NCBI GenBank assembly: GCA_044892525.1
Contig: CM097885.1
Coordinates: forward strand, 225,060,001 to 225,124,000
Source of the DNA: Schmidtea polychroa
Taxonomy: Eukaryota
DNA: 64,000 nt
Direction: 5' to 3'
Shown piece after piece: positions 1,716 to 55,302 of the stretch. The notes under the pieces were generated by a model, which was not told where the DNA came from, ran no database searches, and saw nothing but the letters and a program-made list of their open reading frames with translations. The translations under genes and the position numbers were made by a program. The first letter of the stretch is position 1. The number at the start of each line of letters is the position of its first letter.

Positions 1716-4700
1716 GAATCCGCTGTATGCAATTTCTGTTCCCAAATTATTCTTGATCAATTCTATGTTGAGGTTGATGGGCTACTGTGGCATAGCAGTT
1801 GTTTACGATGTAACGCTTGTCAAGTCAGTCTAAGCAACATGAGATCATGTTTTACTAAAAATAAAAAGTTTTGGTGTCGCCAAGATTACGATAAGTGAGT
1901 TGATAATTTTATGTATGTTTATATTATATCTAATATTAAATTATAATAAATTATAATAAATTATATCTAATACCATGAAAAATGTAGGGTGGACAAGTAT
2001 CGGTTGAAAATTACTAATTTTTAACACAATATGGTAAACTAAAAAGTGTAACTTTAGGAAACACGTAGTTTCTTTTCAGTTTTCTTTCTCCTTCAAAGAT
2101 ACAAATACATAATATTTAGGGTTGTACATTGCAGTTGAAACTTGATTTGTTCATCTTTTATTCTGAATGCATTAAGTAATACTCTGTTTCGGTCTCTAAA
2201 TTTATTCTTCAACTCAAAATGTATTTATAACCTATATAAAGAATGATAAATTAAATATAGCAAGACACATTCTGTTTTTCTTATAAAAAACTTCTTACCC
2301 TATCTCAATAATTTTAGATAGTCCGAAATTTTAATTAGATTATTAGTGGATATATAGTGGATGAATTTCTCCTTTAACTTAACTATCGCATTTACAAATA
2401 TGCCATATTCTAATTCATCAAGCCCACTTGGTTTTGGTGATTGGCATTATTTATTCACAAAAACTATTGAAACGACATTTCGATTGCATATTGTAAATTG
2501 CACTCATTTGAAGTAGACTAGTTGAAAGTACCACTTATGAGCAACTGATACGATTTATTGTTGTGGAAAAACAATTTTGTCAATTTTTTAAAGTTTTTAA
2601 ATGTTAACAGAAAAGCGCAATAATAGAGGTAGAAAGGAGTAGTTATCGATATCGATGCGACAAAATAATGCATACTTCATTAAATGGTCATGTAGCGCTT
2701 AAGAATATGTCAACGAAACTGAATTTTGTAAATGGTGTACTGTTAATCCTGTAAATTATTAGTTTTAGAAACAGTTACACGAATATGAATGTCAGTCATC
2801 TTTGTCTAACATCACACAATGGATTCTCTCGACTGATAATAAGAGAAATAGGGGCATGGATGAAGTGGGTGGTGATATCTTTAGATATGGCATGTCTGAG
2901 GGAAAAACCAAAAACAACTAAATGTTTATATTCTGGCGCATGTTTTAATCATACACAGAAATTTAACTGATTACGAGATGGATTTGCCATAAAAATTTTA
3001 TAACCTAATGTGAGATCATTAGGCATCCTTTGCAAAAACTAGTAAATCACAGAATATAAACCTAACTTTCGTCAACATAATTGCAATATATCATAGACTA
3101 TTATTTTCACTTTCACAATAATTTGATATTCGACCCTTGACTACAATAATATAATATTATTACATGTGAATGTCTTATACTTGACATTGTACTATCTCAA
3201 TGAGCTGATATTTGGTTTTTAAAACGTTCAAAATTTGCACATAAGACATATTTTGGAAATTCATGTTGATAAAAACATAAATCAAATTGAAACACCGGCT
3301 TAGATATTAGAAAAATGTAGATGAAATTGTAAAATATTGTGAAGAATTATGAATCAGAAAAATAATGTCAGAAGGCTCATAAAAATGCTTCAAACTGAAA
3401 AACACTCAATGATAATTCGCAAATAATATAATCCAATCAAAATAGATTAACGAAAGCGGCTGCGCAAAATATTTTAATACTGATGTTCTATCCTTCCTAA
3501 AACTGAGATTTTATTCCTGGGCTTTTCTAAATGTTTTCTCATTCAAAGATACAGTTAATTTGTCAAAGAGTGAAATAAACGAAAAATTAAAAAGCTTAGG
3601 GGAAAATTTTTAACCATAGGAAAATGAAAATTTCTTTGAAATGAATCCAAAAATAATGGTTAAACAGAAGTTGCATTGGATGGCATTTGTTACATTTACA
3701 AGGGTTTTTTGAACACATCACTGACCTCGCTATAATATTTACAAAGCCAAAAATTATGCGACATCATATACCTTGAAAATTCACTAAAAACAATTTTATT
3801 TGATATTTAAAAAAACATTAAATAAATTGTGAAAACAAATTTTAAAGAAAATTTTGATTAATAGGCAATTCAAATGTCAAAAATGTTGTGAACCATTAAA
3901 ATCCTCAGACTTGATCATGAGATCTGGAAATTCCGGTTTACCATACCATGTCGGTTGTTTCAGATGCGATCTTTGCAACGTTTTATTATTGGCGGGAGAT
4001 TTCTATGGATGCGTGAACAACCAGCTGTTTTGCAAAAATGATTTTCTCGTTACTCAGCGAGATATGAATAATTGTTCGGAAAATTGGCGATATTCTACCG
4101 AGACAGGATCACTAAATACGACAGATGCGAATGGGAATTTATCCACAGTCATTGATAATCCTCTGTCTGCTCTTTGTCAACTAAATGTCGACGAATATCT
4201 CAGAAATAAAACCTCAACATCTGCAGTTCCATTAATTGATAAAAGCAACCTTTCATCAAAACTTATTTCACAGTCTATAGATGAAAGAAAAAGTATTCCG
4301 TATAATTCTTTGTTGGAAACTGAAAGTCCCAATACTAAAGAATACACCTCACTGACATCGTGTAAGATTATCCCAGAACCAAATTCAAATTATGAAGACC
4401 AAGAACTTTCTGAGGAATCATTACCAGGTAATTACATTTTACGTATATTTGATGTAAGCCTAGGATTTTAAATTCATTTTCAACGACAAATCTTTAATCA
4501 GAATTTTAAGGACCTTTACATTTATACGCTTATTGAAAAAAAGGTTTTTGGAGTAAGAATTTTATTTCTTTATTGAATTCTAAATCTGTTTACATGAAAG
4601 AAATGGTAGTAACAATCAAAGTCACCAACAATTACAAAAATATCCGTACTATTTCTTTTCAATGTTGTTTGACCCTATGCACCATTTTGCCACAACTGTG

Positions 4701-19399: not shown

Positions 19400-22300
19400 T
19401 TATTAATGAATCAAATGGCACAGTAAATAAACTCACGAAGGATGAAAAATAAATGACAAAAAGGCAATAGAAGCAATATTAGACAAAATTAAAGAAAGAT
19501 TGTGTTCAAATATTAATGAGCCTGATAAGCCTGAATTGATGAAAACACTAAAAAATAATAAAGATATTTTAGGTAAATACAAGATGGACATCGAAGAATC
19601 TGAGGAAGTGAAACATTACATTGACACCGGAAATACAAGACCAATAGCGTTTTAGCCACGAACGGTTCCGATAGGATTAGAAAAAGAGGTTCATCATAAG
19701 GTAAAAGATTTAATAGATGCAGGTATAATTAGACCGAGTTCATCACCATGGAATTTTCCTATAGTGGTGGTAAAAAAGAAAAATGGGGATATAAGAATGT
19801 GTGTCGATTATCGAGCACGCAATGCTAAGACGGCTAGACCGATTTTCCCAATACAAGCTGCATAGGAGTTATTTGATACCATTGGTGGGGCCAGATATTT
19901 TACTACGCTATATTTATCAAGTGGGTATTATCAAGTACCAATTGACGAAAAGGATATACAGAAAACGGCTTTTAGTACAAAATATGAGCAATTTAAGTTC
20001 ACCAGAATGCCTTTCGGACTTTGTTCAGTTCCTGCTACATTTCAAAAACTCATGGACATGGTTCTAAGGAAAGAAAATTGGATTAATTGCGTTGTGTATC
20101 TGGATGACGTGTTGAATTTTTGAAGAACATTAGAAGAACATAATGAACGACTTGATAAAGTGCTAGGGCGCATCAGAGAATCTGGACTTAAATTATCGCA
20201 TGATAATTGTATATTTTTAAAGACAGAGGTTAGCTATCTAGGTCATATCATAAATAAGGAAGGTTGTTAAAACAGATCCAGAGAAAATCAAAAGTATCAG
20301 TTCATGGGAAATTCAAGCATGTAAAAAATAGTTGCAGTGGTTCTTGGGATTTTGCAATTACTATGCAGAGAAGAGACTTCAGAGAAATTGAGTGTGATTG
20401 AGCAGTTTCCAGCGGAATGAGGACAGAAAAGCAGCGTTCTATGAGCTAAAGCGGTTATTGTTCTCTCCACCATTGTTGGCATTACCAATCAAGAAAGAGC
20501 AATATATTTTAGACACTGATGTATCACATAATTGCATTGGAGCTGTCTTGTTGCAGATAATAGAAGGCGAGGAAAGAGTACTATGTTATGCGTCAAAAAC
20601 TATGAGTAAGTGTCAGAGACAGTATTGCATAACAAGGAAAGATCTACTGGCAATTTATAAATTTGTGTTAAAATTTAAGCATTATCTACTTGGATCCAAA
20701 TTTATAGTAAAGACTGATCACCAAGATTGAAGTGGATTTTGAATTGGGATAGCCAAAATACATATCTCAATATTGTGTTTGGAGAGCTGAATTAGAAGGT
20801 TTTGACATTGTGGTCGAATATAGGAAAGGCACTGAGCATGTTAACGCTGATGCAATGTCACGATTACCACCATGTGAACAATGTATGATCACCCAAGGTG
20901 ACCCTAAGAAATGGAGAAATGTCAAAGTATACAAGGATGAAGATTTTGAGGAAAATGACCATGAACCTGAAAGGACAATAAATCAAATAGTCAAGGAAGA
21001 GGATGATTGGGGACAAGACAAGGATGCAGATATTCGGTTTATAATTAATTTGATGGAGAAAGGTGATTATTTAACTGAAGAAAATCCAAGCAATTTAAAG
21101 AATGGCAGTAAAGAACTAAAAGAATTATGGGCTCTTAAAACACATTAGAGATTGCGAGGTGGTTTACTATATATATGCCGGGATGATAAATAGTTATTGG
21201 TGGTACCAAGAACGGAAAGAGATTCCATCATTAAGCAGTTTCATTCCTGTTTAGCGCCTACAGGTATTGAAAAGACAATTGGAGCCATTAAAAATGAATT
21301 TTATTGGCCAGTCATGGATAAAGAGATACGGGAAGTTATTGTAACCTGTAAGGAATGTTTGTATAATAAGAACTTAAACGGGCGATTTAAAGCACCTTTT
21401 CAAAACGTTGTGGGTGAAAGATCTTTCCAGATTATTAGAATCGACATAACAGAACCCTTTAAACCAACAACTGTGGGTTACAGATATATACTTGGAATTC
21501 TCGATTATTTCTCGAAGTATATAAGTTTAATACCAATGGCAGCGATAGAAGCACCGAAGGTTGCAAAAGAACTATGGAGAAACTGGATATCAAAATTTGG
21601 TGTCCCAGAAAGAATACACTCGGATCGTGGAAGTAATTTTCAATCACAATTTCTCCTTGAATACATTATTTAGAAACAAGACACTTTTTGAATTTGTAAA
21701 TCTTTATTATTACATATTTAAACAAAGTTTAAATAATTAGATTATTATAAATACCTATAGTATTTATAATAATTATTTAATTGATTTGGCTACATAGCCC
21801 TCCGCCGAGATCATGGAGTGATCTATTAGATTCTTGGAGATGGGCTGCTTTGAGTTTGTCTACCGATATTCGAAAAGTCGTCGTTGGTAATTGAATTTAA
21901 AATGTTTTAAAATCTGAACTTCGGCTAATTACCCTATATGGTCCGTCATATACAGGCTTGAGGGTGGTTCTTGATTCGACTTTGAGCCACACGTGAGTAG
22001 ATTCCTTCAGCTCGCTCGGTAGGAATGGTTTCCAATTTTGATTTCTTTTCCTTCTGATTATGATATCGCCAGGTAGCCGTCATCAGTTCCAAAAACACTT
22101 TGGCTCGGTGATACATTTGTTTCTTTAGAGATGACATTGCGAAGTCCAAGTAGAACTGACGGAAGTTCATTTGAGTGTGCTGCTTTAAGAGTTCTATGGA
22201 ACCTTTCAACTTTGCCATTACATTGTGGATAATATAGTGTGGTGTGTCTGAATTTTTGACATTGAATTTTTGACACATCTCTCTGAATATAGCCGAGATA

Positions 22301-25300
22301 AATTGCTTGCCATTGTCTGTGATGATGATTTCTGGAACTCCATAGCGGCATATCCACTCGGTCTCCAGGGTTCTCGTTATTATGTTGCTTGTTATTTCAG
22401 AGATCGGGATGGCCTCCGACCAAGAAGTATATCTGTCAATAATAGTATGAATATATTTTTTGTTGTTTACCTGTGGTAAAGGACCAACAATGTCCACGTG
22501 AATAACTTTCAATTTTCCTAGATTTGAAAGCTTTTTGAGTGCTGATTTCGTGTGCCTGCTTATTTTGTTTTTCTGATATTTCTCACAGTTTTTGCACCAT
22601 TTTCGGATTTGTGCTCGCATAAGTGGTCATACGTATTTAGACGATATTAGCCTAATCGTCGCGTTTGCTCCCGGGTGGCATATATTGTGGAGCCGTTTAA
22701 ATTCAACAAACTGGTGGCTCTCTGGCAGGACTATTCGTTGTGATCCTGTTGAAATGTTTACAAATATTCCATCTTCCTTCCTTTGAATTTCAAATGTGGG
22801 AAAAATTTCTAACATTTTGAAGAATGATAGCTCTTTCTGTTGCTGGATGATTTCAGTTTGTGTTATCTGTATTGAGTGAATATGTGTTTCTTCATTGGCG
22901 TTGTCACTGGCTCCCATTTGCCTGGATAGAAAATCTGCAACCAAATTATCTTTGCCCCTTATGTGATTGATCTTTACATCGAATTCACTTATGAACTGGA
23001 TCCACCACCATTGCCGATTTGATGGCTATTTCATTGTGTTTAGGTAGATCAGTGGTTTATGATCGGTAAGTAATTCAAAACTGTTGCCCCCCAGGTGATG
23101 CTTGAAATTTTTGATGACCAGGTAAACTGCTAGCAGTTCTCTGTCAAATGTTGTATACCTGCGTTCCGTACTATTTAGTTTTATTGAAAAGAAGCTGATG
23201 GGTGTGAGTTTGTCATCGCTATTTCTGTGATTGAAATTTGCGCCAATGCCTATCTCTGATGCGTCCGCACATAGAATGAAAGTTCGCCTTGAATTTGGGA
23301 GGGTCAACTCGACAATTTCTTGCAGTTTCTTTTTTGCCGCCTCAAAGGAGAGAGTATGTTGTTCAGTCCATAAGAACTTGCGTTTGTCCTTGATACTAAC
23401 TGAAACTAAATCATGTAGTGGTGCAATTATTTCTGCCAGGTTTGGAGTTAGCCAGTGATAAAATGTTATTGCTCCTATGAATCTTCGAAGTGATTTTGGA
23501 AGTGATTTTGGACATGATGAAATTGTTTATATTTTGTCTGGTTGTGGTGATATTCCTGAACCTCAAATGTTAAATCCAAGGAATTTTACTTCTGTTTGAG
23601 TCGTGCAGCACTTATTTTCATTGATGGACAAATTTGCGTCTTGTAATACTTTCCGAATGACTGTAAGTGACCATGATGTTCTTCCCTAGACTTCGAGAAG
23701 ATGATTATATCATTTATGTACGCTCTGACAAATTCTCTGTACGGGTGAAGAAGTTTGTTAATGAACCGTTGGAAGGTCTGCGACCCATTTTTTAATCCAA
23801 ATGGCATTTTTAAATATTCATATAATCCAAATGGCGTGATTATTGCCATTTTTGCTATATCAGTTTTTGAGATGTGGATTTGATGATATGCCTTCTCTAA
23901 GTCGATGGTTGAGAATATTTGGTTCCCTCCCAGTTGATCGAGCATATCAGTTATTCTCGGTAATGGGTATCTGTCTGACTTTGTTGCTGCATTCAAAAAT
24001 GGGGATACCCAGTTGCTTTTACTTTGTCGCAAAATGCCTTTTGCGATTAACTCATTAAATTCCTTTTCCATCATTTCTAAATACTTCCCACTTAGGCGTC
24101 TAGCTGATTGTGCAATTGCTGGGCATGATGTCTCTATCTCCAATGCGTGCTCAAGAAGAACTTAGTTGATATTTTCAGGAGCAGACCTTTCTCTGACTTC
24201 TGTCGTATTTTCACAAATGTAGATCTTAGCATTTCTACAGTCAATCACAAATGGCCTGCTAGAAAATCTGCTCCTAGAATCGGGTAGTTTACATCTGCAA
24301 CCACGAAGCTCCATCTTAAGTTCTGCTCTATGTTTGAAATCCTGGAATTTAGCGTCTTCAAACCATACATTTTGATGTTGCCGTTATGGGCTGAAACAAG
24401 TTTAATAGGCACGTCTCTAGAATCAGGAGTAAATGCATTTGTTGGAATGACGCTGACATCCGCTCCAGAATCCACGAGGAAATTGTATGTTCTGTCGCTC
24501 TGAAAAATTGGCGCAGTGAATATGGCTTGGATTTTTGTCGACTGCTGAGTATTGTCCCTCTGTCGTCGACATCAAAGATATCATTGGTCTTTTCACGTAT
24601 ATGATGACTTAGTCCAATGACATGGCTGTTCGCGTTTTCGGGCATCTTTCCCAAATCTTCTGTGAAAATAGCATATAGGATTCATTGTTGACAGTTTGTT
24701 GTATTGACTGGATTTGTTATTTGATTTTATAGCACTGATTTGATTTTGGAGATTTTCTATTGTCTGTTGATACTGGATTTCGGCTTGTTGTCGATTTTCC
24801 ACTTTAGATATAACATGATTTTCGATGCCATGTGTAAGTTTGCAATGTTTGCCAGATCATCAATATCCGCTTTCTTTCACACTAATAAGTGTTGTATGTG
24901 AACTGGCATGCAATTTATAAATTGAAATCTCAGGATCTGGCTCGTTTGTGGGTTTCCATTCGGTTCCATTAGTTTGTAACAGCGCTTGAGTTCCCCGAGC
25001 AATCGACTTGGTTTTCGGTCACCAAGTTCTTGTTTCTGCAGCAATTTTTTGGCAGCCTCTGTTGTCGATCCTTTTGATTCCCTGATTATTGCGTCTTTTA
25101 ACGTCGAATACGGCAGTTTAATTTGTGGGTCCTGTAGATCCGAGTATTTTTCGAGGATTCTTGGTGGTAGACTAGTAAGGAGATGAAAATATTTTCATTT
25201 TTCATTTTTTATTGATGCCAGCTCGAGTGCAGCATCAACTTGTTGGAACCACGCTACCAGGTTGTCGAAGAAAATCGGTATCTTCATCTAGATGTGACTA

Positions 25301-26371
25301 CTTTCATGAGCCACACTTCTGACACCTATGTTTTCATTTTCAGAATACATTATTTAGAAACAAGACACTTTTTGAATCTGTAAATTTTTATTATTACATA
25401 ATTAAACAAAGTTTAAATAATTGGATTATTATAAATACCTATAGTATTTATAATAATTATTTAATTGATTTGGCTACACTGTAAAGTCTTGGGTATTCAA
25501 AAAACCTTCACTTCACCATATTATCCTCAAAGTGATGGTCTGGTGGAAAGATTGTTTGGAACGGCTAAAAGTATAATAGGCACGGTGTTGGAAGAAAGTG
25601 CGACAAGGGATTGGAGCATGATTCTACCAACCATAGAATTTGGGTTTAGAACCACTAAACAGAAAACCACCAAACATTCCCCATACGAGATTGTATTTGG
25701 AAAGAAAGCAAAACTTCTAATCGGACCGGCTAGAGTACTAGGAGAGAAAATTACAAATTATGATGACTATGTAGAACAACTACAGATATACAGACAATTC
25801 AAAAGAAAGTTAGACGTATTACTGAAGAAAGTATGAAGAAAATTACAGAAAGATATAATTAAAATCGATGAAATAAGGAAGCACGGATCGAAGATCTAGT
25901 GATGGTTAGAAACGAAGACAGAAAAAGTTTTGAAAGGAAATTCGTAGGCCCATTTATTATTCAGAAAATAAAAAGCAAATGGACATTTATATTATATAGT
26001 GATAAATTAAGGAAGACAATAATAAGAAACTTCAATCAAATCAAAGTAATCAAGGACATAGGTAAGAAATTCGAGATAGAGAATATTACAGAGAAAACCA
26101 ATATTTGGTCAAGAAAATCGAGCGTAAAAACAAAAGAGAGAAAGATTTATCCAAAGAGAGACAAGAAATTCAAACCCACGATACTACTTCGATTGTTGGC
26201 GAGGGGGATGTTATATAGATTAAATTAATATTTAATTCATATATTATAATTTTAAAGTTTTTATTCGAAAGAATTTAAAATTAACATAATTTAAAATTGT
26301 TTCAATAATTTATTTATTGGAATATATATTTTGAACTATTTCTTATTTTATAATTTTATAGATATATAACA
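19400..26371 (+). mobile_element. Gypsy element A: degraded RT-RNaseH-integrase, PPT and 3' LTR (26209-26371). 5' LTR and gag are absent. Interrupted by element B
   Basis: SSSPWNFPIVVVKKK, RMPFGL, YLDD, LDTDVS, KTDH, HSDRGSNF|CKVLGIQKTFTSPYYPQSDGLVER, GPF. PPT GGCGAGGGGGA is followed by an LTR reading TGTTATATA...TATATAACA. Many stops and frameshifts. Confidence 0.88.
21659..25478 (-). mobile_element. Gypsy element B (CsRN1/Mag-like), degraded gag-PR-RT-RH-INT with two LTRs (25329-25478; 21659-21794, terminally clipped)
   Basis: Direct repeats about 136 bp long. PBS-like AGGTGTCAGAAGTG (tRNA-Leu type) follows the 5' LTR. gag KIPIFFDNLVAWFQQVDAA, protease DSGADVSVIP, RT MPFGLKN..YINDII, RH LCADASEIGIG, INT HVDIVGPLP..DNGKQF. 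PPT GGCGGAGGGCTA. Confidence 0.9.
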
Positions 26372-26563: not shown

Positions 26564-27085
26564 CAGTAAACCCCCGCAATTACGACCTAATTGGTTGCTG
26601 AAAATAAGTCGTAATGTGAGCAGTCGTAAAGAGAGGTTTTATTTCCCATTGACCCAATGTCATAAATAGCTAATTCGTCGTAGGTCTTGAATTTCGCCTA
26701 TCTATTCTTTAACAAAATAATTTCATGCAACTAAATGCGAGTATAAGTAACACAAAATCACTAACGTAGTTCGAAGATCAATTCATTAATAAAGGAAGCT
26801 TACACTTGCTACAGACAAATATATTATGAAAAAAAACCATCAGTTCAAAAAACATTAGATTGTTATTATGAGGAAGTTTTATAATGAAGAAATTTTTAAA
26901 TTAATTTTTAGATTAATTTTTAAAAAAACAAAATAAGAAGATATTTTAATTAAAAATATCTTCGTAGAAAATTTGTTTAAATAAGAAAGTTTAAAGAAGA
27001 TATAATTTGATTTTGATATTTACTGAAATAAAATTTATGGAAACAAAAACTGATTTTAATGTTTTACAGAATGAACCTCCTAATA

Positions 27086-27098
27086 TGGTGGCAGCGGT
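27086..27098 (+). promoter_or_regulatory. Primer-binding site of element C, tRNA-Leu type
   Basis: TGGTGGCAGCGGT directly abuts the LTR and is complementary to a tRNA 3' end ACCGCTGCCA-CCA, as in eukaryotic tRNA-Leu(AAG/TAG). Confidence 0.8.
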
Positions 27099-28131
27099 AA
27101 ACACGGACGCAATCACCGAAAGATTGCTACCAAAGGTATTCTGCCAAGGTGACGACTTGGAAAAGTTCATTAAAAGATGCGAAATTTATTTCGACGCCAA
27201 GAGAATCACGCAGAAGAAAGATCAGGAAAGATTAACATCTTGCATGATTGATGAGGATCTCCTGGAAGTGTACGCCAAAACACTGAAAAAAGCCGAAGGA
27301 TTCCAGGCTAGGTTGCGATTGGCATTCGATCGCGAAAGAGATGTTTTAAAGGATCTACAAAACTTGTTGAATTACAAGCGGAAGGGTGAAGAAATAGAAA
27401 CGTATTTTAAAAAGGTGGAGGACCTTGTTGATAGGTTGTTCGAAAATAAAGAATTTATCAAAGAGAAATTAACAGCAAGGATGTTAATAGTATGTGCGGA
27501 GAATAAAGAAGTTGAGAAAGAAGATAAAAGACGGAAGACAAAAAGCACAGAAGAAATAAAGGAAACACTAACTCTGATGGACAAAGTAGACAAGCAAAGA
27601 GATCAGATAAACAGTATGAAAAGTTACGCCAGAGTGGTCTATCAGGAACCACAGGGAAGAGTACAATACAAGAAGAAAGAACAGAGAGAAGAAAGTATCC
27701 GAAGAGAAATGCCAGAATGCTGGTTATGCCACAAAATAGGACACACGAAAATTGATTGTCCAATAAAAGGTAAAATAGAATGCTGGACATGTCATAGAAG
27801 CGGACATATAAGTAGAAACTGTCCAGATAAAAAAGCTCCAAGATGTTTTGGGTGTGGGAAAGAAGGTCATATAAGAAGATTGTGTCAGGAAATACGTTGT
27901 GAAAGATGTAGCAGAAATGGTCATAGATCCGAGGAGTGTTATACAAAGATGAGGTACGGGAGAGCGACGGAGAGACAAAGATTCACGGGAAACAGATACA
28001 GTCGGATAAATGGTATCGAGAAAGAAGAAGAAAGGGAATCGTGTGTAGAGACAAATGAAGATAATTTTAGGAAGACGTACCCAAACAACAGGGCTCCACC
28101 AGTAGAGGAGTTGGTTGGAGCCATATTCTAA
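27086..28131 (+). CDS. Gag of element C with four CCHC zinc knuckles
   Basis: Open frame to TAA at 28129-31 (likely start at the ATG at 27085, MVAAVN...). CX2CX4HX4C occurs four times: CWLCHKIGHTKIDC, CWTCHRSGHISRNC, CFGCGKEGHIRRLC, CERCSRNGHRSEEC. Confidence 0.9.
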
Positions 28132-31100
28132 CAGAAAATTGGATGGGATATCCTCAAGGGGCAGAAAAGTGGGAGAATATTGGAAGGGTAAGCGAGAAAG
28201 TATACAGGTTCCTAAAGAGAGAAATGTTTGAAGAGGAAGTGGAAAGAATTGGAACCATTGAAACGGAGCAGGTTGTTGAAATTTTGTATAACAGAATGCA
28301 AGGAAGGCCTAGTATAACAGTAAGGATGAATGGGGAAAATTTCAACTGTTTATTAGACACTGGTGCAAGAATCAATGTAATGAGTGTGAACTGTTTTAAC
28401 AAGCTACGAGGACAAAAATTGACGAAAAGTGACGATAAGTTACGATGCGCAAACGAGAGTACGATCGAGACAATAGGAAAAACGAAGGTGCAAGTAACCA
28501 TTGGAAATGTTTCGAAGGAAGTTATATTCATTGTGGCGGAGAAAGTGACACCAGACGTGATTGGAGGAATCGAATTACAAGAAACATTTGGATTTAGACT
28601 GTTAAAAATTAAAGATATCGAGGCTAGTGAAAAAGACAAGAACTATATTTGTAACATTGAAGCAAAATTTGGCAGAAAAATAAAGGATGAAGAACGATTG
28701 ATACGAGCGTTGGAACAGTTAAAGATCAATGAAGATAGCAAATTAAAGGAAATTATAACAAACAGTGGAAACGTGTTTATGGCAGATAAATGGGATGTGG
28801 GTCGCACACATTTGGTAAAACACAAGATAGTTACAAGAGGTGAGCCGATAAACATAAAACCATATCGCCAACCACTAAATTTGGAATCAAAGATTGAAGA
28901 AGCAATACAAAATTTGTACGAAAATGGAATTATACGGAAATGTAACTCTCCATGGAATACACCGCTAATATGGGTATGGAAAAAAGAGAAAAAGGATATT
29001 AGACTATGCTTAGACTTTAGACAGCTGAACGCGGTAACAGAGAGGCAGGCATTTCCAATGCCAAACATAGACGAGATGTTGGATTTGTTAGGAGGATCCG
29101 TCTTTTTCAGCTCAATCGATCTAGGTAATGCATATTACCAAGTGGAACTAGAAGAAAAATCACAGGAGAAAACAGCTTTTTCAACAAAGAACGGACAATA
29201 TTGTTTCAACAGAATGCCGTTTGGAATTGCAGCAGCACCAGGTACGTTCCAAGAAATTATGACAAAAGTATTAGGCAAAATAAAGGGAGCAATGGTGTAT
29301 TTGGACGACATCTTGATTTATTCAAGCAGTAAAGAGAAACACTATACAATACTCGGAGAAGTGTTAAAGGCGATTGAGGAAGCAGGCCTAAGGATTAATC
29401 CAGAAAAATGCCAAATAATAAAGGAAGAAATCAGATTCTTAGGACACATAATCAGCAAGGAAGGAGTACAGACAGATCCATCTAAAATTCAGGCCATACA
29501 GAACTTTGGGAAGCCTAATTGCGTAAAGAAACTCCGAAGCTTTTTAGGTATTTGCAATTATTATAGAATATTCATCAGTGATTATGTAAAGAAGGCAAGG
29601 ATGTTAGAACAATTATGTAGCGGACCAAGTAACAAAAAATTAGAATGGAGTGAAGGAACGAATAGCGTGTTTGAGGGATTGAAATTAGCACTCACGACGG
29701 CACCAATCTTATGTTTTCCGGATCTGAAAAAAGAGTTCATTTTAGATACTGACGCTAGTTTCCATACCATTGGAGCAGTACTTTCACAAAGAGATAAAGA
29801 TGGAAAGGAAAGAGTAATTGCGTATGGATCACACTCGATGACGAGCCACGAGAAAGGATATTGTATTACAAGAAAGGAACTATTGGCGGTATATTATTTT
29901 TGCATTCATTTTAAGCACTATCTCTACGGAAGAAGATTCACGCTCGGACAGACCACAAGGCAATCACGTTTATGATGACAACCAAGAAGCCGATTACTTC
30001 ACAATTCCAAACATGGATCAATTATTTGAGCAGTTTAGATATAAGAGTAGAATACAGAAAGGGTATTAATCACCAAAATGCAGACATGGTGTCGAGAACT
30101 AAATGTGACACGTGTGTTCAATGTCAAATGGCCCACGAAGAAGCTAAGAAAGGAAAGATAAAAACCAGATTACTAGACTCGATCAGAGAAGAGGGAAGAA
30201 GCAACATCCAACATGGAATTGTAGAAGAAGTACGAAAGAAAACGAGGATACCTGAAAATGAGTTACAAGAAACAATAAAGGAAATACATAGACTATTGTG
30301 TCATGCTGGAGTCGAGAAGATAGCCGATTATATGAAAGATAGATATGTTGGAAAACACCTGTGGAGTCAGATTCAGGAAATTGTTCGAAGTTGTGAGATT
30401 TGTCAAAAAACCAAGGCTTTAACAATAACAACGAAAGAACCAGTAAAAAAACAAGATTCGAAGGAAATGTTCGAAATTATATTCGTGGATATATGTGGAC
30501 CGTTGGCAGAAACAAAAGGACGTAAGAAGTATATATTGGGCATAATAGATCAGTATAGTAAGTATCAAGTCTTGACAGCGATAACAAAACAAGACGAAGA
30601 AACAATAAAGAAAACGATTTTAGAAAAGTGGATTTTAAGATTTGGATGCCCAAAGGAGATAAGAGTTGATTGCGGAAAGGCGTTTGAATCAGGAATAATG
30701 AGAGAATTCACAAAGATGCTAGATATTAAATTATGTTTTTCGAGTCCATACCATCACCAAACAAACGGTCAGATAGAAAGACAATTCAGGACAATACGGG
30801 ATTTGATAAATGCTACTTTACAGGATAGAAAGAAGACGGATTGGGCAGAGATATTACCAGAAGTCGAATTCACTTTAAATGCAACCAAACAAAAAACGAC
30901 AGGGAAAAGCCCGGCAGAGATAGTTTTTGGAAAAAAGATTAGCAGGGAAAAATGGTACGGGTCCAAAGAAATACCGATAAAGGAAGAACTAGAAGAACAA
31001 ACAAGGAGAAAATCCAATGTAGGAGAAGAAGTATTAGTGAAAGTAGAAACACGCCACAAAGGCCAAGACAGGTATGAAGGTCCGTACAAAGTGATAGAGA

Positions 31101-31198
31101 AAGTGCATGACAGACGATACATCTTAAGAAATGAAGATGGAAAAAGGATCGAAAGAAATGTGGAAAAACTTAAAAATTTCTTAAGAAGGGGGATATGA
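28071..31198 (+). CDS. Pol of element C (protease, RT, RNase H, integrase) with a single 1-nt frameshift near 29945
   Basis: LLDTGA, SPWNTP, LCLDFRQLN, RMPFGI, YLDD, LDTDAS, HRLLCHAG..CEIC, VDICGPL, VDCGKAF, GQIERQF, GPY. FTL-GQTT versus expected FTL-RTDH indicates one missing base. Confidence 0.92.
28080..28122 (+). promoter_or_regulatory. Candidate -1 programmed ribosomal frameshift signal (gag-pol)
   Basis: C CCA AAC heptamer in the gag frame, 5-nt spacer, then the hairpin GGCTCCA-CCA/TGG-T-TGGAGCC. The pol frame is -1 and open from 28071. Confidence 0.78.
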
Positions 31199-31886
31199 GG
31201 AAGTTTTATGATGAAGAAATTTTTAAATTGAAAATTTTAAAAATTAAATTTTAGATTAATTTTTAAAAAAACAAAATAAGAAGATATTTTAATTAAAAAT
31301 AAGAAAGTTTAAAGAAGATATAATTTGATTTTGATATTTACTGAAATAAAATTTATGGAAACAAAAACTGATTTTAATGTTTTACAGAATGAACCTCCTA
31401 ATAGTTATTTTAAGAAGACTCCAGCTATTCTTGGGGGGTGCTCAACCTGTATGTGTCAGCCAATCAATGGAGGTTGATAATAGAAAGGTGATAGAAGATT
31501 TTACAATTGAAAATGATGTAGTTGCAATCGACGATGACCCCATTGAATTGTGCCCTTCTCAATCACACGAAAATTGTAGTTTAAATTTTTTTATGAAAGA
31601 AATATTGTTTGTATTTTAAATATTATTCACTAGATATTATTCACTTATTAATAAATATTAAAAATAAACAAAATACTTAATAATATTCGGTAGTATTGTG
31701 ATTGAAAACATGAATGTCTAGTATTTTGTTACAAAATTAGTCATTATACTTTCATTGAAGTTAGGGCCTAACTATTGTAGGTTGGGTAATGCGTGGCTAG
31801 GCTAGTCGTAATTGTGAGTCAAGGTCGTGATTGGCCTCAGAAAACGAGGTCGTAAAACCGGGCGGTCGTAAGGCGAGGGTCTACTG

Positions 31887-47763: not shown

Positions 47764-48449
47764 CAAACTTATAGAATTAAAAGTATTATTAAAACAATTA
47801 CTAAATTACGACCTTAAATAAAATAGAAATAAAAACACAGATTTATTGAATAATATTACGCGATAGTCAAGTAAAACTTGAACTCATCATATTAAATATG
47901 TATATTGGCTTGTATAGGATAAAATCCAATTTAAATCCAATTTAATTCAAAATATCTGATTGAAAAACTTATGTAGATATGATCAAATTTACACAAAATT
48001 AAATTTATATTAATAAAAAATTTCAAATAAAAAGTAAAAAAAATACTGATAGTGGATTCGCAAAAGCTAATTACTATATTCCTTAGATTAATCGTTCTGT
48101 GGGGTAGTGACAATTGACCAAATTTCATCTCCTTGACAACTAACGTGCTTCATCCTCAGGGTTGTTACTATTATTCGAATTCCAAAAAGTCGCAACTTTA
48201 AAACAAAGTTTGATTCCACCAAATCACACCTATCAGAAGTGACAGTGGTACCGTGTAGCTTGGGTGGGACGCGAAAACCAGTTGAAAATTCCCCAGGCTT
48301 ATTAAGTTTCAAATTTTTCGGGTTCATATGTAACACATTTCTAATGATAGCTTCAATTAATAGTAATTGGTTAGTTCTCAAACAAATTTGAAATAGAGTT
48401 GAGATGTGCATTCGAACAGCAACACCAAGATACATTGTCGATTCACTTG

Positions 48450-48680
48450 ATGATGTTTCATAAATTGCCATAGTGTGAGATATAGGATCACTAGATTTCA
48501 GAACGATTCGTGAGTTACGACCTGAAGTGTACAAAGAAAGAACTTCTCGAATTGAAAAATACATCATTAGTGCATTAAATGTCTCCAACATAATTTGAGT
48601 CATGGATACCATGTCTGCTTTGGGAATATTGAAAAGAACTTCTCAGTTCCATGCGAAAGAGTTAAAATGAACAAAGATAT
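48450..48680 (-). pseudogene. Actin fragment (decayed)
   Basis: [49 protein letters not shown] aligns to actin [49 protein letters not shown]. The conserved DSGDG loop is destroyed and the homology stops afterwards. Confidence 0.75.
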
Positions 48681-50049
48681 AATTGTCAATCATTGACTAT
48701 CAATGTTAACACTTTTGAATCCATATCCATTCTTTAAGTTAAACCATTTAATAATGAAAATGAAAGTTTTTAAAAATCTTTATTCTATTCAAAAATTTCA
48801 TTTATTACGATTCTTATGCCTTGAAAGACTGTTTCTCGTTCATAGTCTGCTAAGGCATTTGAACTAGTAAACACACAGTGCCACTAGGTTTATTTAGGTA
48901 ACATTTTATTATTTTTCCCCGATTTAATCAATCCCGTCATCGTTGTAATATAAATAGGGAGACGTGTGAAAATAGTTTCGTTATAATCAAGTATAGTAAC
49001 GATATGATNNNNNNNNNNNNNNNNNNNNNNNNNNNNNNNNNNNNNNNNNNNNNNNNNNNNNNNNNNNNNNNNNNNNNNNNNNNNNNNNNNNNNNNNNNNN
49101 NNNNNNNNNNNNNNNNNNNNNNNNNNNNNNNNNNNNNNNNNNNNNNNNNNNCGGGTACGATGCGTGATTTTCACGCAGGCGCCACGGCGGAAAAATACAA
49201 AAGGCGGCAAAATTGTACAGAAATTTGTTATTTTCATAAGATTTTTATGTTTTTATAATAAATATGAATTAAATTAAAAGTAATAAAGTTATATTGTTTT
49301 GTTATGTATGCATTTATCGTTTTTTTTACTCTTATTTTGGAATGCGAAGGCGGTAATATGCAATTTTCACACATCATCTGAAACTCTAGCGCCGGTGCTG
49401 ATTATTATTATTATTATTATTGTAGTAGATCGTTGTAAATAATTGTAAATAATTTTAAATAATTGTTATAAACAATACCATAATTAGGTTCTGTGTTTTT
49501 TATTTATTATCGTCCCCATAGCGTCGGGGAAAGAAAATTCAATAAAAAAATTGAAAATTGAAAAAAAATCGATAAAAAATTCACGACAGGAAGTAGTAAA
49601 AAGAAAATTCTATTGTTAGCAATTTATCATCAAATACCCGAGTATCAATAAGAAGAAAAGAGCAAATTAATCCTCGAAAGAAAGTAAAGACTATTTTATA
49701 TTTCTATTGTAAGCAATTTATCAACAAATTATATTTTATGAGTTTTATGTAATATTTATTTATAGTCATTCTCACCTTTATTAATTGATCAACTCATCCT
49801 TAGCTGTTATAGCGACAGGTCTAATTACAGTTTATTACGTTCTAGCATAGTTTGACATATCTTCTGTGCTTATTTAAATTATCCTACGCTGTTATTTAAA
49901 TACTCTCTAAATTATTACTACCAATGATATTAATTATTATTTAGAAAGGTACATTTAATTAACGTTTAGAATACCTTTAAATGATTACTTACAATTTTGT
50001 TAAAATCCTAGAAGCTGGAAATTACTAAAGGTTAATATTTAGATAATCT

Positions 50050-52385
50050 ATTGACACGTTTCCTACTTATATTTCATTCATACTATCCCGTACCACCATG
50101 GTTGGATTAAAAGATTTTAGTACGGATCCTGGGAGTAAGATACCCTTAAGAGGTAGAATGATTCGTCGAACTCTTAATATCAAGGTATATTGTTACAAAA
50201 GGAAAATTCAAGACTTCGAATTTCAGTTTCGTCGGTTAACCTAAAACCACAAAAACGTATCCTGGTCGGCATTTGAGATTAATTCAGAAGGGTCCGAATA
50301 CTGTAATTGGCGCTTATGTGGTTTGGTTAGAATTTCGCTGATTCCCCAAGCAAGGTCACTATAATTAGTCAAATTGTGACCCCGATTATTATCCACAATA
50401 ATCACCAAACATTATTATTATTATTTAGACAAATTAATTGACAGTTTTCTAGCCATTGCCCGGTGTGACTATTCATGCTTCAGTTCGTGGTCGTTGATTG
50501 TATAGTGTAGCGCGTTGGCGATATGACTGTTGTTATTGGCAGTTGTCTCTACGAGTTGATAAGTTTTGTGTTGTTCCTCAGGCTAGTCGTTATCTAATGC
50601 GATCACGGGTTGTTGTTCACATCACTGAAATTGTAATTGAGTGACATATAGTGGATGACTCGATATCAGAAAATTGCTAGCCAGTGAGGTGACTTCTCAC
50701 GTATTTTCATGGGCAGATGACGTGTGCTAGATGCATAATGTTTAGCTATATGGGTAAGATTTGGTGGGATTATCAATTTGTCTATTCATGCGATGTCGGA
50801 GAATTTTACTGCTGTCTCACATTTGTCTATTTCCCGTCTCGTCTAAAAAGGTTGGAATCTATTATTATGAATCGAAAATTCTACAACTAGATATATTTAC
50901 TGATGGAATTCCCAGCTTTCCCAGGAGACGGCTACAAATTTCAGTGGAGGACATCCCGCATGGATCAATTGGAAAATATTAAACAGGTAACACCAAATTT
51001 GGTTTAATATGTGTCTAAAAATAAATTTTTTCTCGTAAATCTGATTTTTCGATTTAATTTGTTTCCTATAATTGCTATTCGACCGTTACATGTATTCACG
51101 TTGTATGAAATTGGAAAACTAAACTTCTCTCAAGTTTGTTGATAAAAATGAAGATTATAGTCCAGTCCTCGAAGTGCCACGGAGACTCGTCAGCGATGGA
51201 AATGAAGCGATTATTTAAAGTAATGCTACAACTCCAGAGGTGTAGCTAGTGGCAGTGCGAACGTCTTAGAAGAGGACGACTTGCATCGTAGAATCATTAT
51301 GGAAGTTCCCTCAGTCATTGTGAAGCATGTGGCTTAACTTTTTCCCACTTTCAGGGTACACCGTTTTGAACTAATATTCGTTAGTTTACTGGATTTTAAT
51401 GTCACCTTCAGCGATAGGACCCGTGAGGAAGCCCCCACATTCCGGCCCAATACAGCTGCGTGATTGAAGAACCTCATGTCCACCGGCTGAGCTCCCGAAG
51501 GCACCTCATACCATGACATGAAGTTCCTCAACTCCACGTTACTCATCAAATGAAAATTCAGAAAATATCTAATTCAAATAATAAAACATAGACATCTAGA
51601 TAAAAATTATTTATTAATTCTATAATACTCAAACATGAAAATTTCATTAAAACATTAAAAATTACTAAATATGGAATCAAATGAAGAGGTTAATAAAGAA
51701 TTTACTATAATTCAGCCTTCATAATTACTTTAAGGTATTAAAATTCTAAACAAAAGTTCGGCTTACCAATACACTAGATGCTGAGCTGAGTCAAAAATTC
51801 AAATCTAATGTTTCTGAAAATTAGGCTGTTCGCTGTGAATCTGAATAGTTCTCAAATGTTGTCTCGGTTCCTCGTAGCTTCTGTAAGTATTTGCTGTAGT
51901 TGGTAAGGTGTTGAAGTTAACTGTGATCTGTAAAATTTTCTGAGTAAACGGTCTCTATCAAAATCTCACTTACCTATAAAATTTTCTGAGTAAACGGTAA
52001 TCCTAATGATTTTGGTGCCGCTTTATATAGTGATTTTTATTTTATGCGGACCAATCAAAATCGAGTACCGCTTATTTCTATTAATTTAATATAATTTTCT
52101 TGTTTTTAGGTTGTTTTTTCTTATTTTCTTTATTTTTGATATGTTTTTCTATTTATTTCTTTAGTTTCCTTATTATTTATTAAATTCTTCCTTATTTATT
52201 TGTCAACTTGTTGTTCCATTTTAATCTTTTCTTAATTTTATTTTTTTTTGTTTTAATTCTTGTGTCTTAATTATTATTTTTCCTATATCTTATTTTATTT
52301 TATCTTTAATTTCGTTTATTTTATTTTTATTTTCCTTAATGTTCTACTTTCTTATTTTTTAACGATTAAGTTTTTGGACTCAGCC

Positions 52386-52390
<5 letters not shown>
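50050..52390 (-). mobile_element. LTR-like element E2: putative 5' LTR 52390-51857 (TGTTG...CAACA) plus decayed internal region
   Basis: Starts TGTTGGGCT next to a (TA)n run, then an A-rich tract, CCAAT, TATATAAA (52029-22) and a 25-bp direct repeat. Ends CGAGACAACA|TTTGA. Internal pieces are weakly integrase-like (SSTEICSRLLGKLGIPSV; VFGPF). Confidence 0.55.
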
Positions 52391-52424
<34 letters not shown>

Positions 52425-52769
52425 CTGAAAATATGTATAAATATATTTGTTATAGCTTTCGAAAAGTTTTGGGTGGACGTTGCTTACAATACAGCCAAGG
52501 TAACCATGGGTGCCAAAGCCTTGGTCACGGAATTTCGATTAATCAATTTGACATTGTTCCATTCTCACCATGTTATCAAAATGAGCACAGAGAAAGCACA
52601 TCAAGGAGAGCCAAATGATTGTACTGGATTTAAGAGTCACGTCACAAGAGTATACCATCTTAAAATTACTTTTCCACGTCCACGAGAGACTCGGGTTAAA
52701 GGCCATTTACAATGAACAAGAACTGTTTAAAATGTTTCAAATCCCCGACTTATACCATGAACCAAGCTA

Positions 52770-55302
52770 CAGTCTTCCACCGAATATAGTACGCGCGCTT
52801 TTTTGTTTTTTTAACGTTAAAACATTTTTATGTTTCTATATTATATATATATATATACATACGTATAATATTATTAGAAAATAGAAATCAAATGACTTGT
52901 GTTTATAGTGTACACGCAATATTAATTTCTCAATCAAAATGATTATGTAGAATAATCATACTCAATAAAAGTATGTATGTATATATGTATTGTAAACTAT
53001 TCAAAATAGAATTTTTGATTCAATTTAAAAACTTCACTTGTAAATTCAAAAATACAAATCTAAGTAGGCGTTGCTTAATTTTCGCGAAAATATAAAATAT
53101 GTAATTCTTTTGTTTACGTTTAGTTTCATTAGAAATTTGGTGACACATATATCTAAATATTTGTTCTAATTAGATCAGGTTTTGTTTAAAATAAAATTTC
53201 TTTAAATAAGTACATAACTTATAATTTATTAAAACACCATACGATGAGCAGCAATAAAACACTTTCAACCAGAAAAAATTATACAATCAAGAAAAAGGTT
53301 GATATATTAAATGAAATTAAACCAGGTGAACCAGGAAAGAGTTGTCGTGCAATTGCTAAACTACATGGAATTAATGAATCGGTATTACGTGGTTGGAAAA
53401 ACAAAAAAGAGAATCTTCTTAAGGCGGTAAGTGATGTAAATATTTGTACCCGTATATGCAGAAGATTAGCTGGTGATGGAAGGCAAATGGAATATGAAGA
53501 AATCGAAAACAAAGTTCTACAGTGGGTTTTGTTACGAAATAAGAAAGGAATCCGTGTAAAAGAAAAATATATTCAATTAAAAGCTTTGTCAGTTCGAAAT
53601 GATTTTATAGCACATGGCGGTAATGAAGAGTTAAACAAATTTCAAGCATCAGCCGGATGGGTTGACCGCTTCAAAAAGCGAAACAATTTAACTTCACGAC
53701 GATTTACCACTACAAAGAAGATTCCGGACAATGTAGATGAAATTTGTAGAAGTTTCATTCAGAATTTTCAAGGTTTCGTTGCGAAAATGAATGTAAAAAC
53801 TGAAAATATAATCAACTTCGATCAAGTCCCACGGTACTTTGAATGTGAGCCAAAAAGTACGATAACTTCAAAAGCTACGCGAGAAGTCTTTTTGCGTAAA
53901 TCGTCAACGTCGCACAAATGTTTTACTTTGACCTACGCAATTACTGGTGCAGGTAAGGTTTTAAAACCTCATCTACTCTTTTCAGGACTTGTTAATAAAC
54001 CTACTGTAGAACAGCGATGTTTAGTTGAGGTAAATCGTACAGGCATGTGGAACGAAAACATTTTAAAAAACTTCATTTCTGATGTAATTCTAACGAGAAG
54101 ACAAACAGCTTTCAGTAGAGAACCTGTTCTTATTTTGATGGACTCCTATGGTACACATGTTAAGTTTTTTGAATCAGAAAACGAGAAACAGAAATATGCG
54201 AAACATAACATTCATTTCATGCTAATACCACCAAATATGGCCGGATTGCTGCAACCAGAGGATGTCTCACTTAATAGAAGTTTCCAGCAACATTATTCTA
54301 CAAATTATGATAAATATCTTGCAGATGCCTTAAAAGATGATAATTCCACATTACGAACAAAGGCCGGAAATATTAAATCACCTAATTATTCTATCGTTTC
54401 CAAGTGGATTCTAGAATGGATCGACTCTTTGTCCAACGAAACTGTGCAAAAAGCTTTTAAAGTTTGCGGACTGGTACCAAAGGATAAATTCGACATTCAT
54501 AACTTGCATGAGCCATTAAGAAAATTTTTCGATGATTCAACATTTAAATTTGAAGAGTGGGAATCAAGTTATGGACAGATTTTGAAACAAAACAATAATT
54601 TTTTCTTGAATAATGATTCTGAATGGCACTGGCCTCTTGACATCCGCACGAGTTTTTTTCATTGTATTTGGAAAGCAAGTAATGAAACTGAAAGTGATTT
54701 CGAAAGTTGGCTTCCTAAATTTACTCGTAAAGTTTTTAAATTTATTGACAAATATGCCGTCTGCAAAGAATTGCTGGATGATTCTGAAAGAAACTGTCTT
54801 CAAAATGGTGAATATACTGGAACCAATATTGAAATTTTTTCAGTTTCTATTATAAATAATTGGAAAATTCAAGTCACAACTTTAGATGAGGAAGCATGTG
54901 AAGTGTCGAGCTTTATTTATGGGTCTAACTCAACAGTAAAAAATATTCATATTATTAAGCACAAGGACTTTTTCGGCTTACAATTATAAATTTTAATTAC
55001 CTTTTTTTAATTTATGAATTTTAATTTAATTTTATTTTATTTTGAATTGATTTTGATTTTATTTAATTAAATGAACTGATTTGAACTATGTGATATTATT
55101 TGAACTAAGAATTAATAATAAAATTACAAAATAAAAGTATGAAACTTTTATTATTTAACTCTAAAATTGAATTTCGAATATAGTACGTGCGTGTTATATT
55201 TGAGTGCGCATTTAATTTGAAAAAAACTAAAATATTTCAAATATAAAATAATTTCAGAAAACTCGAATATAACGCGCGCGTACTATATTCGGTGGAAGAC
55301 TG
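52770..55302 (+). mobile_element. Intact-looking pogo/Tigger-type DNA transposon, 2533 bp
   Basis: Perfect 29-bp TIRs CAGTCTTCCACCGAATATAGTACGCGCGC; TA TSDs at 52768-69 and 55303-04; one uninterrupted ORF. Confidence 0.95.
53244..54989 (+). CDS. pogo-family transposase (psq/CENP-B HTH plus DDE_1) with a C-terminal extension of about 120 aa
   Basis: RKNYTIKKKVDIL HTH, FQASAGWVDRFKKR, catalytic NFDQVP / LMDSYGTH / LLQPEDVSLN; 581 aa. Confidence 0.93.
   Translation: MSSNKTLSTRKNYTIKKKVDILNEIKPGEPGKSCRAIAKLHGINESVLRGWKNKKENLLKAVSDVNICTRICRRLAGDGRQMEYEEIENKVLQWVLLRNKKGIRVKEKYIQLKALSVRNDFIAHGGNEELNKFQASAGWVDRFKKRNNLTSRRFTTTKKIPDNVDEICRSFIQNFQGFVAKMNVKTENIINFDQVPRYFECEPKSTITSKATREVFLRKSSTSHKCFTLTYAITGAGKVLKPHLLFSGLVNKPTVEQRCLVEVNRTGMWNENILKNFISDVILTRRQTAFSREPVLILMDSYGTHVKFFESENEKQKYAKHNIHFMLIPPNMAGLLQPEDVSLNRSFQQHYSTNYDKYLADALKDDNSTLRTKAGNIKSPNYSIVSKWILEWIDSLSNETVQKAFKVCGLVPKDKFDIHNLHEPLRKFFDDSTFKFEEWESSYGQILKQNNNFFLNNDSEWHWPLDIRTSFFHCIWKASNETESDFESWLPKFTRKVFKFIDKYAVCKELLDDSERNCLQNGEYTGTNIEIFSVSIINNWKIQVTTLDEEACEVSSFIYGSNSTVKNIHIIKHKDFFGLQL

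Follow-up and report, generated by a model that had tools for sequence, protein, structure and literature searches.

The LTR of a giant Gypsy-type retroelement in Schmidtea polychroa carried a 25-nt sequence twice just downstream of its TATA box, the two copies changed in concert, and the edges of the second copy bore scars. The first copy was followed by a splice donor and the second closed a short GT-AG segment, a predicted mini-intron. We consider it about three in four that the packaged RNA has a spliced 5' end and an unspliced 3' end, and that strong-stop DNA lands on the intronic copy and restores the intron and its donor. The start site, the splice and the 3' end in this reading were predicted from DNA.

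The LTR in the window and the element it belongs to

The window was a 64,000-nt stretch of contig CM097885.1 (assembly GCA_044892525.1, positions 225,060,001 to 225,124,000). All the coordinates given in the earlier note for the TATA box, the two repeat copies, GTAAGT, the 46-nt GT-AG segment and the single mismatch were reproduced on the minus strand. The LTR started with TGTTGGGCT from 52390, and its TATA box, TATATAAA, had its first T at 52029. Copy 1 (25 nt, 51998-51974) was followed directly by GTAAGT from 51973, which opened the GT-AG segment (51973-51928); copy 2 (51952-51928) differed from copy 1 by one base (position 23 of the repeat, T in copy 1 and C in copy 2, at 51930). This mismatch was private to the window copy, and nine of the nine closest two-copy relatives had identical copies. 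The best repeat with at most one mismatch in 51857-52100 was 25 nt long, compared with 15 nt or less in 200 first-order Markov resamples. The CCAAT box reported earlier was present, but in inverted orientation on the minus strand (ATTGG at 52055). The features of the window copy were as follows.

49774-52390, minus strand: first (5') 2.6 kb of an approximately 4.1-kb LTR of an element that is Burro-type giant Gypsy by its layout, from identity to relatives L035, L036 and L037; this copy lacks the rest, with the distal acceptor, the LTR reading frame and the LTR's 3' end
51999-52390, minus strand: inferred U3 promoter part; the terminus TGTTGGGCTGAG is common to the loci, and the part stops one base before copy 1
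52051-52073, minus strand: conserved promoter motif with the inverted CCAAT box (ATTGG) at its end; 465 exact genome matches to the degenerate 23-mer
52022-52029, minus strand: TATA box; first T 30-31 nt before copy 1 in 94 of 98 parsed loci
51974-51998, minus strand: copy 1, predicted exon 1 (the first 25 nt of the RNA), with AG at its end; A after a pyrimidine at its start in 70 of 70 haplotypes, a pattern that the parser required
51953-51973, minus strand: unique 5' part of the predicted intron, donor GTAAGT and spacer; GT in 98 of 98 and GTAAG in 89 of 98 loci parsed with a donor pattern
51953, minus strand: junction G, a predicted cap-copy scar; G there in 31 of 70 haplotypes, and a hot spot of change between siblings
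51928-51952, minus strand: copy 2, predicted 3' end of the intron and the place where strong-stop DNA is predicted to land; it contains YAG and, at positions 5-8, a branch-like TTNA
51610-51615, minus strand: candidate poly(A) signal AATAAA, then repeated TTTTATG words; in 53 of 78 loci an AATAAA lies 50-100 nt ahead of a conserved anchor
51393-51570, minus strand: block conserved across subfamilies, with self-complementary stretches, from BLAST blocks and a conservation profile; subfamilies diverge at 51393
52391-52421, no strand: (TA)n microsatellite in which the LTR was inserted, read from the sequence

The window held only the first 2.6 kb of the LTR (52390-49774), which was 97% identical to L036/L037 over 2.6 kb and 95% identical to L035. 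The copy was inserted in the (TA)n tract and broken off at 49774, and a target-site duplication (TSD) cannot be read for it, one LTR end being absent. CAACA at 51857, where the interval of the earlier note stops, is not the LTR end: relatives starting with TGTTG and ending with CA(A/G)CA continued to 3.6-4.1 kb.

A genome search with window positions 51700-52100 as query gave 889 candidates, 40 of which were scored. That the sequence is an LTR was confirmed by paired LTRs and 4-bp TSDs in the relatives. TSDs of this length flanked 8/8 solo LTRs with both ends complete (among 16 rows checked), two more solo LTRs and two of three full-length pairs. The LTR pairs were 98.3% (L143/L144), 99.4% (L147/L148, 4005 bp) and 99.97% (L149/L150, 3819 bp) identical, and the latter two, with matching TSDs, bracketed about 22 kb. 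Another pair, L009/L010, was 99.6% identical over 1582 bp and lay 23.7 kb apart; between its members Pfam matched gag, zinc knuckle, fusion-glycoprotein env, protease, RT, RNase H, integrase, ankyrin, RING, TRAF and MATH domains. The PR-RT-RH-IN order of Gypsy/Metaviridae pol was seen in the Pfam matches of L033/L032. BIR and BCL2 domains were not detected by Pfam in 14 frames of one copy, in which the frames were interrupted. An identical 18-mer starting with TGG lay 7 nt behind three 5' LTRs (L143, L147, L149), and we take it to resemble a proline-tRNA primer-binding site. A conserved word ending in TGATT, not a plain purine tract, preceded the 3' LTR (L142, L144, L146, L148, L150), and T(G/A)ATT was present on both sides, behind the 5' LTR and before the 3' LTR.

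Giant size, env between gag and pol, and ankyrin plus TRAF/MATH cargo mark the element as Burro/GYPSM1 type, judged by layout against the published description and not by sequence identity to Burro1-4. Burro/GYPSM1 elements are giant Gypsy-like elements of planarians whose long LTRs enclose about 20-25 kb of internal sequence (PMC6431247). The present element shares with them gag with CCHC knuckles, a fusion-glycoprotein env between gag and pol, PR-RT-RH-IN, ankyrin and RING/TRAF/MATH, but the sections of that account drawn on here mention no LTR anatomy, intron or repeated first exon (PMC6431247). A Penelope-like element was rejected because integrase, protease and true LTR pairs with TSDs were present. 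Rfam gave only a chance match to (TA)n in 49000-53000, and no family for the conserved block; a ribozyme idea was dropped.

Several other features were recorded. Two LTRs, L035 and L040, were near-identical over the first 1000 bp, split sharply at the end of the conserved block and rejoined near position 2900; the LTR middle is exchangeable, with the split point at window position 51393. At L151:444-8434, two solo LTRs of different subfamilies, separated by about 600 bp and pointing the same way, each had a TSD; this pair was duplicated 36 kb away. A 599-codon open frame for a pogo/Tigger-type transposase (CENP-B_N, HTH_Tnp_Tc5, DDE_1; 53190-54989, plus strand) was located 800 bp away from the start of the LTR. 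Two further Gypsy-type LTR elements, both small and with short direct repeats and matches to RT/RH/IN, occupied 26863-31403 (plus strand) and 21659-25478 (minus strand). About 2 kb past the end of the LTR fragment, on the same strand, was a gene that we take to be ATPAF2-like, and between the two was an actin-like fragment (48088-48642, minus strand; Pfam E 3e-6, below the cut-off).

The doublet as a family trait and the likeness of its copies

The 23-nt promoter motif upstream of the doublet had no match in its reversed control, and a TATA-to-donor pattern had 580 genome matches (control, 17). The family comprises about 600 LTRs in this genome. We examined 120 loci, 30 chosen by likeness to the window and so biased to the doublet, and 90 chosen by the promoter motif, which is blind to it; the latter were drawn from the first 100 listed of the 465 motif matches, 3 of those 100 being left out. 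All counts come from related sequences of one genome, mostly from its first chromosome-scale contig. Two repeat copies were present in 101 of the 120 loci and three copies in none. The motif-chosen, unbiased set had two copies in 73/90 loci, showing that most family members retained the doublet, which the earlier note had set as a check. The 19 loci without a doublet comprised 17 with a single copy, one with a broken copy 2 and one interrupted behind the donor. All of 17 further loci picked by the TATA-to-donor pattern had the doublet, 13 with identical copies and 4 with one difference, these 4 being duplicates of one insertion. A metagenome scan with the promoter motif gave 0 matches.

Intron-less copies were mostly single tips nested among two-copy relatives in a U3 tree (the bootstrap had not settled), as would be expected for repeated losses that rarely spread. 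Losses of the doublet also occur by other routes: in one discordant pair (L074/L075, that is L143/L144) the 5' LTR had one copy and the 3' LTR two, with flanking 4-mers that differed at 1/4 bases.

A parser that itself required donor, branch and copy-1 start patterns read 98 of the 101 two-copy loci. In the three others (L069, L070, L109), the doublet and the donor and branch were visible by eye. The copies were identical in 71/98 loci and had one difference in 22 and two or three in 5, with 53 different copy-1 sequences among the 98. Four loci were dropped before haplotypes were counted (L101 and L134, start mis-parsed; L017 and L085, exon end mutated), and identical rows were then collapsed, leaving 70 haplotypes; haplotypes and sibling pairs are related, so that their counts are not independent trials. 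Differences numbered 0.36 within a locus, compared with 7.0 between the copy-1 sequences of the 70 haplotypes, and the lowest mean among 10,000 shuffled copy pairings was 5.96. These values point to one copy often being rewritten from the other, by some process. Mismatches shared by copy 1 and copy 2 failed as a test of direction, as the sharing loci were duplicates of one insertion.

Tandem duplication in the host genome with gene conversion at the DNA level, unrelated to reverse transcription, is hardly credible as that process and already largely refuted. Deletion between the repeats after insertion is possible, as the discordant pair L074/L075 illustrates. However, the copies were equal in LTR pairs of 99.4-99.97% identity and hence already equal at insertion, and such conversion does not account for repeat limits that coincide with the start site and donor, or for the one-sided G hot spot described below.

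The limits of the repeat were sharp. Its left end lay at TATA+30/31 in 94/98 loci, bearing out the earlier note's distance of about 30 nt to a start site that is itself predicted, and its right end lay at AG|GT, with the match between copies running at most 4 nt past the donor in any of the 98 parsed loci. The distance from TATA to copy 2 varied from 74 to 85 nt, whereas that to copy 1 was fixed at 30-31 nt. The GT-AG segment measured 44-54 nt in the 98 loci, with a branch-like TTNA 16-22 nt before the final AG. The predicted intron thus has a GTAAG donor, a branch-like motif, a YAG acceptor and a host-like length; its polypyrimidine tract is short, and A-rich in many variants. Of the short host introns cited earlier as the genome's own class, one of 42 nt ending in a similar acceptor (TTATAG; 47424-47383) was verified by reading frame in the gene that we take to be ATPAF2-like. 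A spliced-leader-RNA reading of the arrangement (short exon, donor, Sm-like site) was dropped because the Sm-like word was not retained in siblings.

The same products could come from an unspliced genome by recombination, if strong-stop DNA made on RNA from an intron-less copy switched to the 3' end of a two-copy RNA packaged alongside, or if RT slipped between the repeats. Intron-less copies do exist (17/120), LTRs are mosaic with blocks swapping at LTR positions of about 1000 and 2900, and the same G scar would be expected. We nevertheless judge this improbable. Only a minority of copies lack the intron; these are mostly tips of the tree and too few to homogenise about 50 variants, and slippage should yield three copies and duplicated spacers, which were found in 0/120 loci. 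Further, the 44-54-nt length was held though the junction gained and lost bases, and the branch-like TTNA kept its place before the AG.

Scars at the edges of copy 2

The base before copy 2 was G in 31/70 haplotypes and T or C in the other 39/70, whereas the base before copy 1 was G in 0/70. When the match between copies was extended leftward, the first foreign base was G in 39/70 haplotypes, compared with 7% G in the spacer; the corresponding count in the motif-chosen unbiased set was 29/55. Among 36 near-sibling pairs, some of which share members, the base before copy 2 differed in 14 and the base before copy 1 in none, while U3 differed by about 2% (1.8%) per site. Many spacers ended in remnant starts of an older copy, stacked before copy 2 and often closed by G. 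The spacer tail contained bases of the U3 tail in 8/98 loci, in which the match extended 3-8 nt to the left.

In HIV-1, copying of the cap turns the base directly upstream of the major start to G in about 5% of cycles, according to the portion of the study used here (PMC12172438). We infer that the G before copy 2 is a cap-copy scar of the HIV-1 type, shifted downstream of the predicted start by the length of one intron. Strong-stop DNA copied from a spliced 5' end would have its 3' end at this very place. The likeness to HIV-1, as far as that portion of the study describes it, extends to strong-stop DNA pairing with R at the 3' end of the RNA, a copied cap leaving G upstream of the landing site and misaligned transfers scarring the junction; in HIV-1, by contrast, the genome is unspliced and the scar falls at the U3-R junction, immediately ahead of the start (PMC12172438).

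By itself, the G scar is equally expected from a start site at copy 2. The mini-intron would then not be spliced at all: RNA would start at copy 2 or at both copies, and copy 1 and its donor would be an upstream duplicate refreshed occasionally by mis-annealing in strand transfer. Both copies share an initiator-like start, and the HIV-1 G lies directly upstream of the start in the results drawn on (PMC12172438), as the G here lies before copy 2. However, we regard this as very improbable, since the TATA box keeps a fixed distance to copy 1 while copy 2 wanders, a donor upstream of the start would be useless and yet is kept, and nothing in this account gives a reason for identical copies in 71/98 loci. 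The direction of flow set out next also runs against it.

On the right edge, GTAA, the first four bases of the intron, stood behind copy 2 in 20/98 loci, and the match was never longer. An exact 4-nt GTAA insertion relative to close relatives was found in four separate lineages (L090, L078, L082, L122). A shift by 4 nt, reportedly the commonest donor shift, could explain GTAA behind copy 2, but this explanation is weakened because GT now occupies donor positions +5/+6 in only 2/4 clean insertions (the others have GC and GA, one each); the proportion among all cases was 14/20. Two loci joined copy 2 to the next downstream AG, losing 7 and 52 nt, the outcome expected of a shifted acceptor; microhomology was present, so these could be RT slips, and the small duplications behind copy 2 also have microhomology and can be RT slips. 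The right-edge scars are therefore only suggestive of splice-site shifts. Taking both edges together, sequence appears to flow from the copy-1 context into the copy-2 context and not in reverse, the direction that renewal of copy 2 from a spliced 5' end would give.

Predicted splicing, the RNA end and the proposed renewal of the intron

Eleven whole LTRs were compared (L035, L040, L044, L046, L048, L049, L144, L148, L150, and two at L151). A strong-donor pattern occurred only once, at the end of copy 1, in 10/11; the eleventh had GTAAAG. All 11 had a pyrimidine-rich YAG 5-10 nt before the ATG of a sense reading frame of 247-255 codons (about 249) at LTR positions of about 2370-3610. This frame was intact in 8/11, was followed by AATAAA in 8/11 and encodes a protein in which no Pfam family was found; it is absent from the incomplete LTR in the window. 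The distal YAG is likely to be the far partner of the copy-1 donor, and this acceptor would be a sufficient cause of donor conservation in its own right. Under recombination with an unspliced genome, the conserved distal acceptor (11/11) would give the donor its only role, in the long intron to the LTR reading frame, perhaps together with U1-based suppression of poly(A) as in foamy virus. In the part of the foamy virus work drawn on, a donor is retained in R for splicing-independent control of poly(A) (PMC3694450). With a spliced 5' end, the same donor would have both a near and a far acceptor.

No AATAAA was found in the spacer or copy 2 of the parsed loci. The signal was present at the position corresponding to 51615-51610 in 53/78 loci (26/51 in the motif-chosen set), and candidate poly(A) signals lay about 340-390 nt and about 3 kb downstream. 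The RNA thus probably ends well downstream of copy 2. A poly(A) site at copy 2 was rejected because no signal lay there, which leaves unsupported the earlier suggestion that the 3'-LTR transcript ends at the intronic copy. An RNA end beyond copy 2 alters that model yet helps it, because pairing of exon 2 sets the register.

Assembled contigs of four runs, which are uncertain to be RNA, were inspected over 51300-52450; none had a joint at the intron and none spanned it. One contig departed from the reference at 51970, as an intron-less genomic copy of another subfamily likewise would. Reads from a spliced 5' end would align to copy 2 with no gap, so that a check of RNA-seq for the 51973/51928 junction is nearly blind.

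The proposed cycle would run as follows. Pol II would start at copy 1, 30-31 nt from TATA, and the cap-proximal donor would be spliced to the AG of copy 2, giving cap, one repeat copy and exon 2. In the 3' LTR the same donor, far from the cap, would be left unspliced, with the RNA ending downstream of copy 2; here copy 2 would simply be the sequence adjoining exon 2. Going by known minus-strand transfer, strong-stop DNA would pair through exon 2, placing its last 25 nt on copy 2 and not on copy 1. Copy 2 would then be overwritten by copy-1 sequence, sometimes accompanied by a G derived from the cap or by a few extra bases where the start had shifted. Like U3, copy 1 and the donor would be inherited from the 3' LTR, and the intron would be restored in both new LTRs. 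Pairing on copy 1 instead would give the scattered intron-less copies. The donor would have to be kept, as the sole strong donor with a conserved distal acceptor before the approximately 249-codon frame, which would be its purpose.

This cycle is supported by the concerted change, the sharp limits, the consistent lack of a third copy, the G hot spot, the copy-1-to-copy-2 flow and the nesting of intron-less tips. Of the earlier idea of an intron restored by strong-stop DNA, the parts that could be checked in DNA (LTR pairs, TSDs, a retained doublet) stood, and the RNA end at the intronic copy was not supported. Against the cycle stand the escape of the 3' copy from splicing, which has no explanation in the data, and the 39/70 haplotypes with T or C, which had no G at -1.

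A further, tentative step, to which we give somewhat less than even odds, is that the genomic RNA itself is spliced, one cap-proximal donor picking either the near acceptor (genome) or the far acceptor (mRNA of the LTR protein), with donor and intron rebuilt from the 3' LTR each cycle. Splicing of the mini-intron would use up the donor, shield the remaining RNA from splicing and mark the RNA as spliced. The intron could instead be a tolerated, self-perpetuating by-product with no role in the choice between genomic and subgenomic RNA, although spliced and with copy 2 rewritten in the same way; we think this rather unlikely, and it is counted within the three in four given above. Such a cycle would sustain itself without selection for function, intron-less and weak-donor copies recur, and the junction scars resemble noise. 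However, intron-less lineages seldom expand, suggesting a fitness cost of losing donor or intron, and the length band and the branch-like motif were kept.

Parts of the renewal cycle have parallels elsewhere. As in foamy virus, a donor stands in both LTRs upstream of the poly(A) signal; the viral donor is recognised in the 5' copy but masked in the 3' copy of the RNA, which sets a precedent for the 5'/3' asymmetry that the cycle needs; the foamy virus results used here describe no intron wholly inside R, no exon copy, and suppression that is independent of splicing (PMC3694450). Penelope likewise has a cap-proximal spliceosomal intron in its terminal repeat (75 nt, 46 nt from the start), and this pseudo-LTR intron raises expression (PMC2377424). 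Unlike the present element, Penelope is not an LTR element, and its pseudo-LTRs arise by tandem insertion; no known regeneration mechanism and no exon-1 copy at the intron tail are described in the sections of that paper drawn on (PMC2377424). The portions used of two further papers (PMC5542766, PMC8532177) contained nothing on an intron inside an LTR with an exon-1 copy. The literature searched gave no account of an intron inside an LTR with a tail that copies exon 1; Repbase and the original Burro description with its supplements may bear on novelty. In split-intron retroviral vectors, which are engineered and single-cycle, reverse transcription copies a splice site placed in the 3' LTR into the 5' LTR, and in intron gain by duplication of an AGGT segment, a one-off DNA event, splicing can reduce the duplicate around AG|GT to a single copy. 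In neither case is the tail of the intron rewritten from RNA that has been spliced. The element family is likely to be one already known, and the proposed intron renewal would be a variant of LTR replication.

The accepted view is that the RNA packaged by retroviruses and LTR retrotransposons is unspliced, since an intron once removed by splicing cannot be recovered by reverse transcription. If the proposed cycle is true, such splicing would be invisible in ordinary RNA-seq mapping, and the arrangement would offer a design idea for intron-keeping vectors. The LTRs would hold a natural fossil record, in DNA, of cap copying, start-site choice and splice-site choice in past generations. A testable mechanism would be available for the retention of an intron in a retroelement, an open point for Penelope-like elements. 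If the genome itself is spliced, the element would sidestep the difficulty that retroviruses face in exporting a genome that is not spliced. Above all, an LTR element would keep a spliceosomal intron indefinitely by way of its 3' LTR, with the exon copy as the landing pad.
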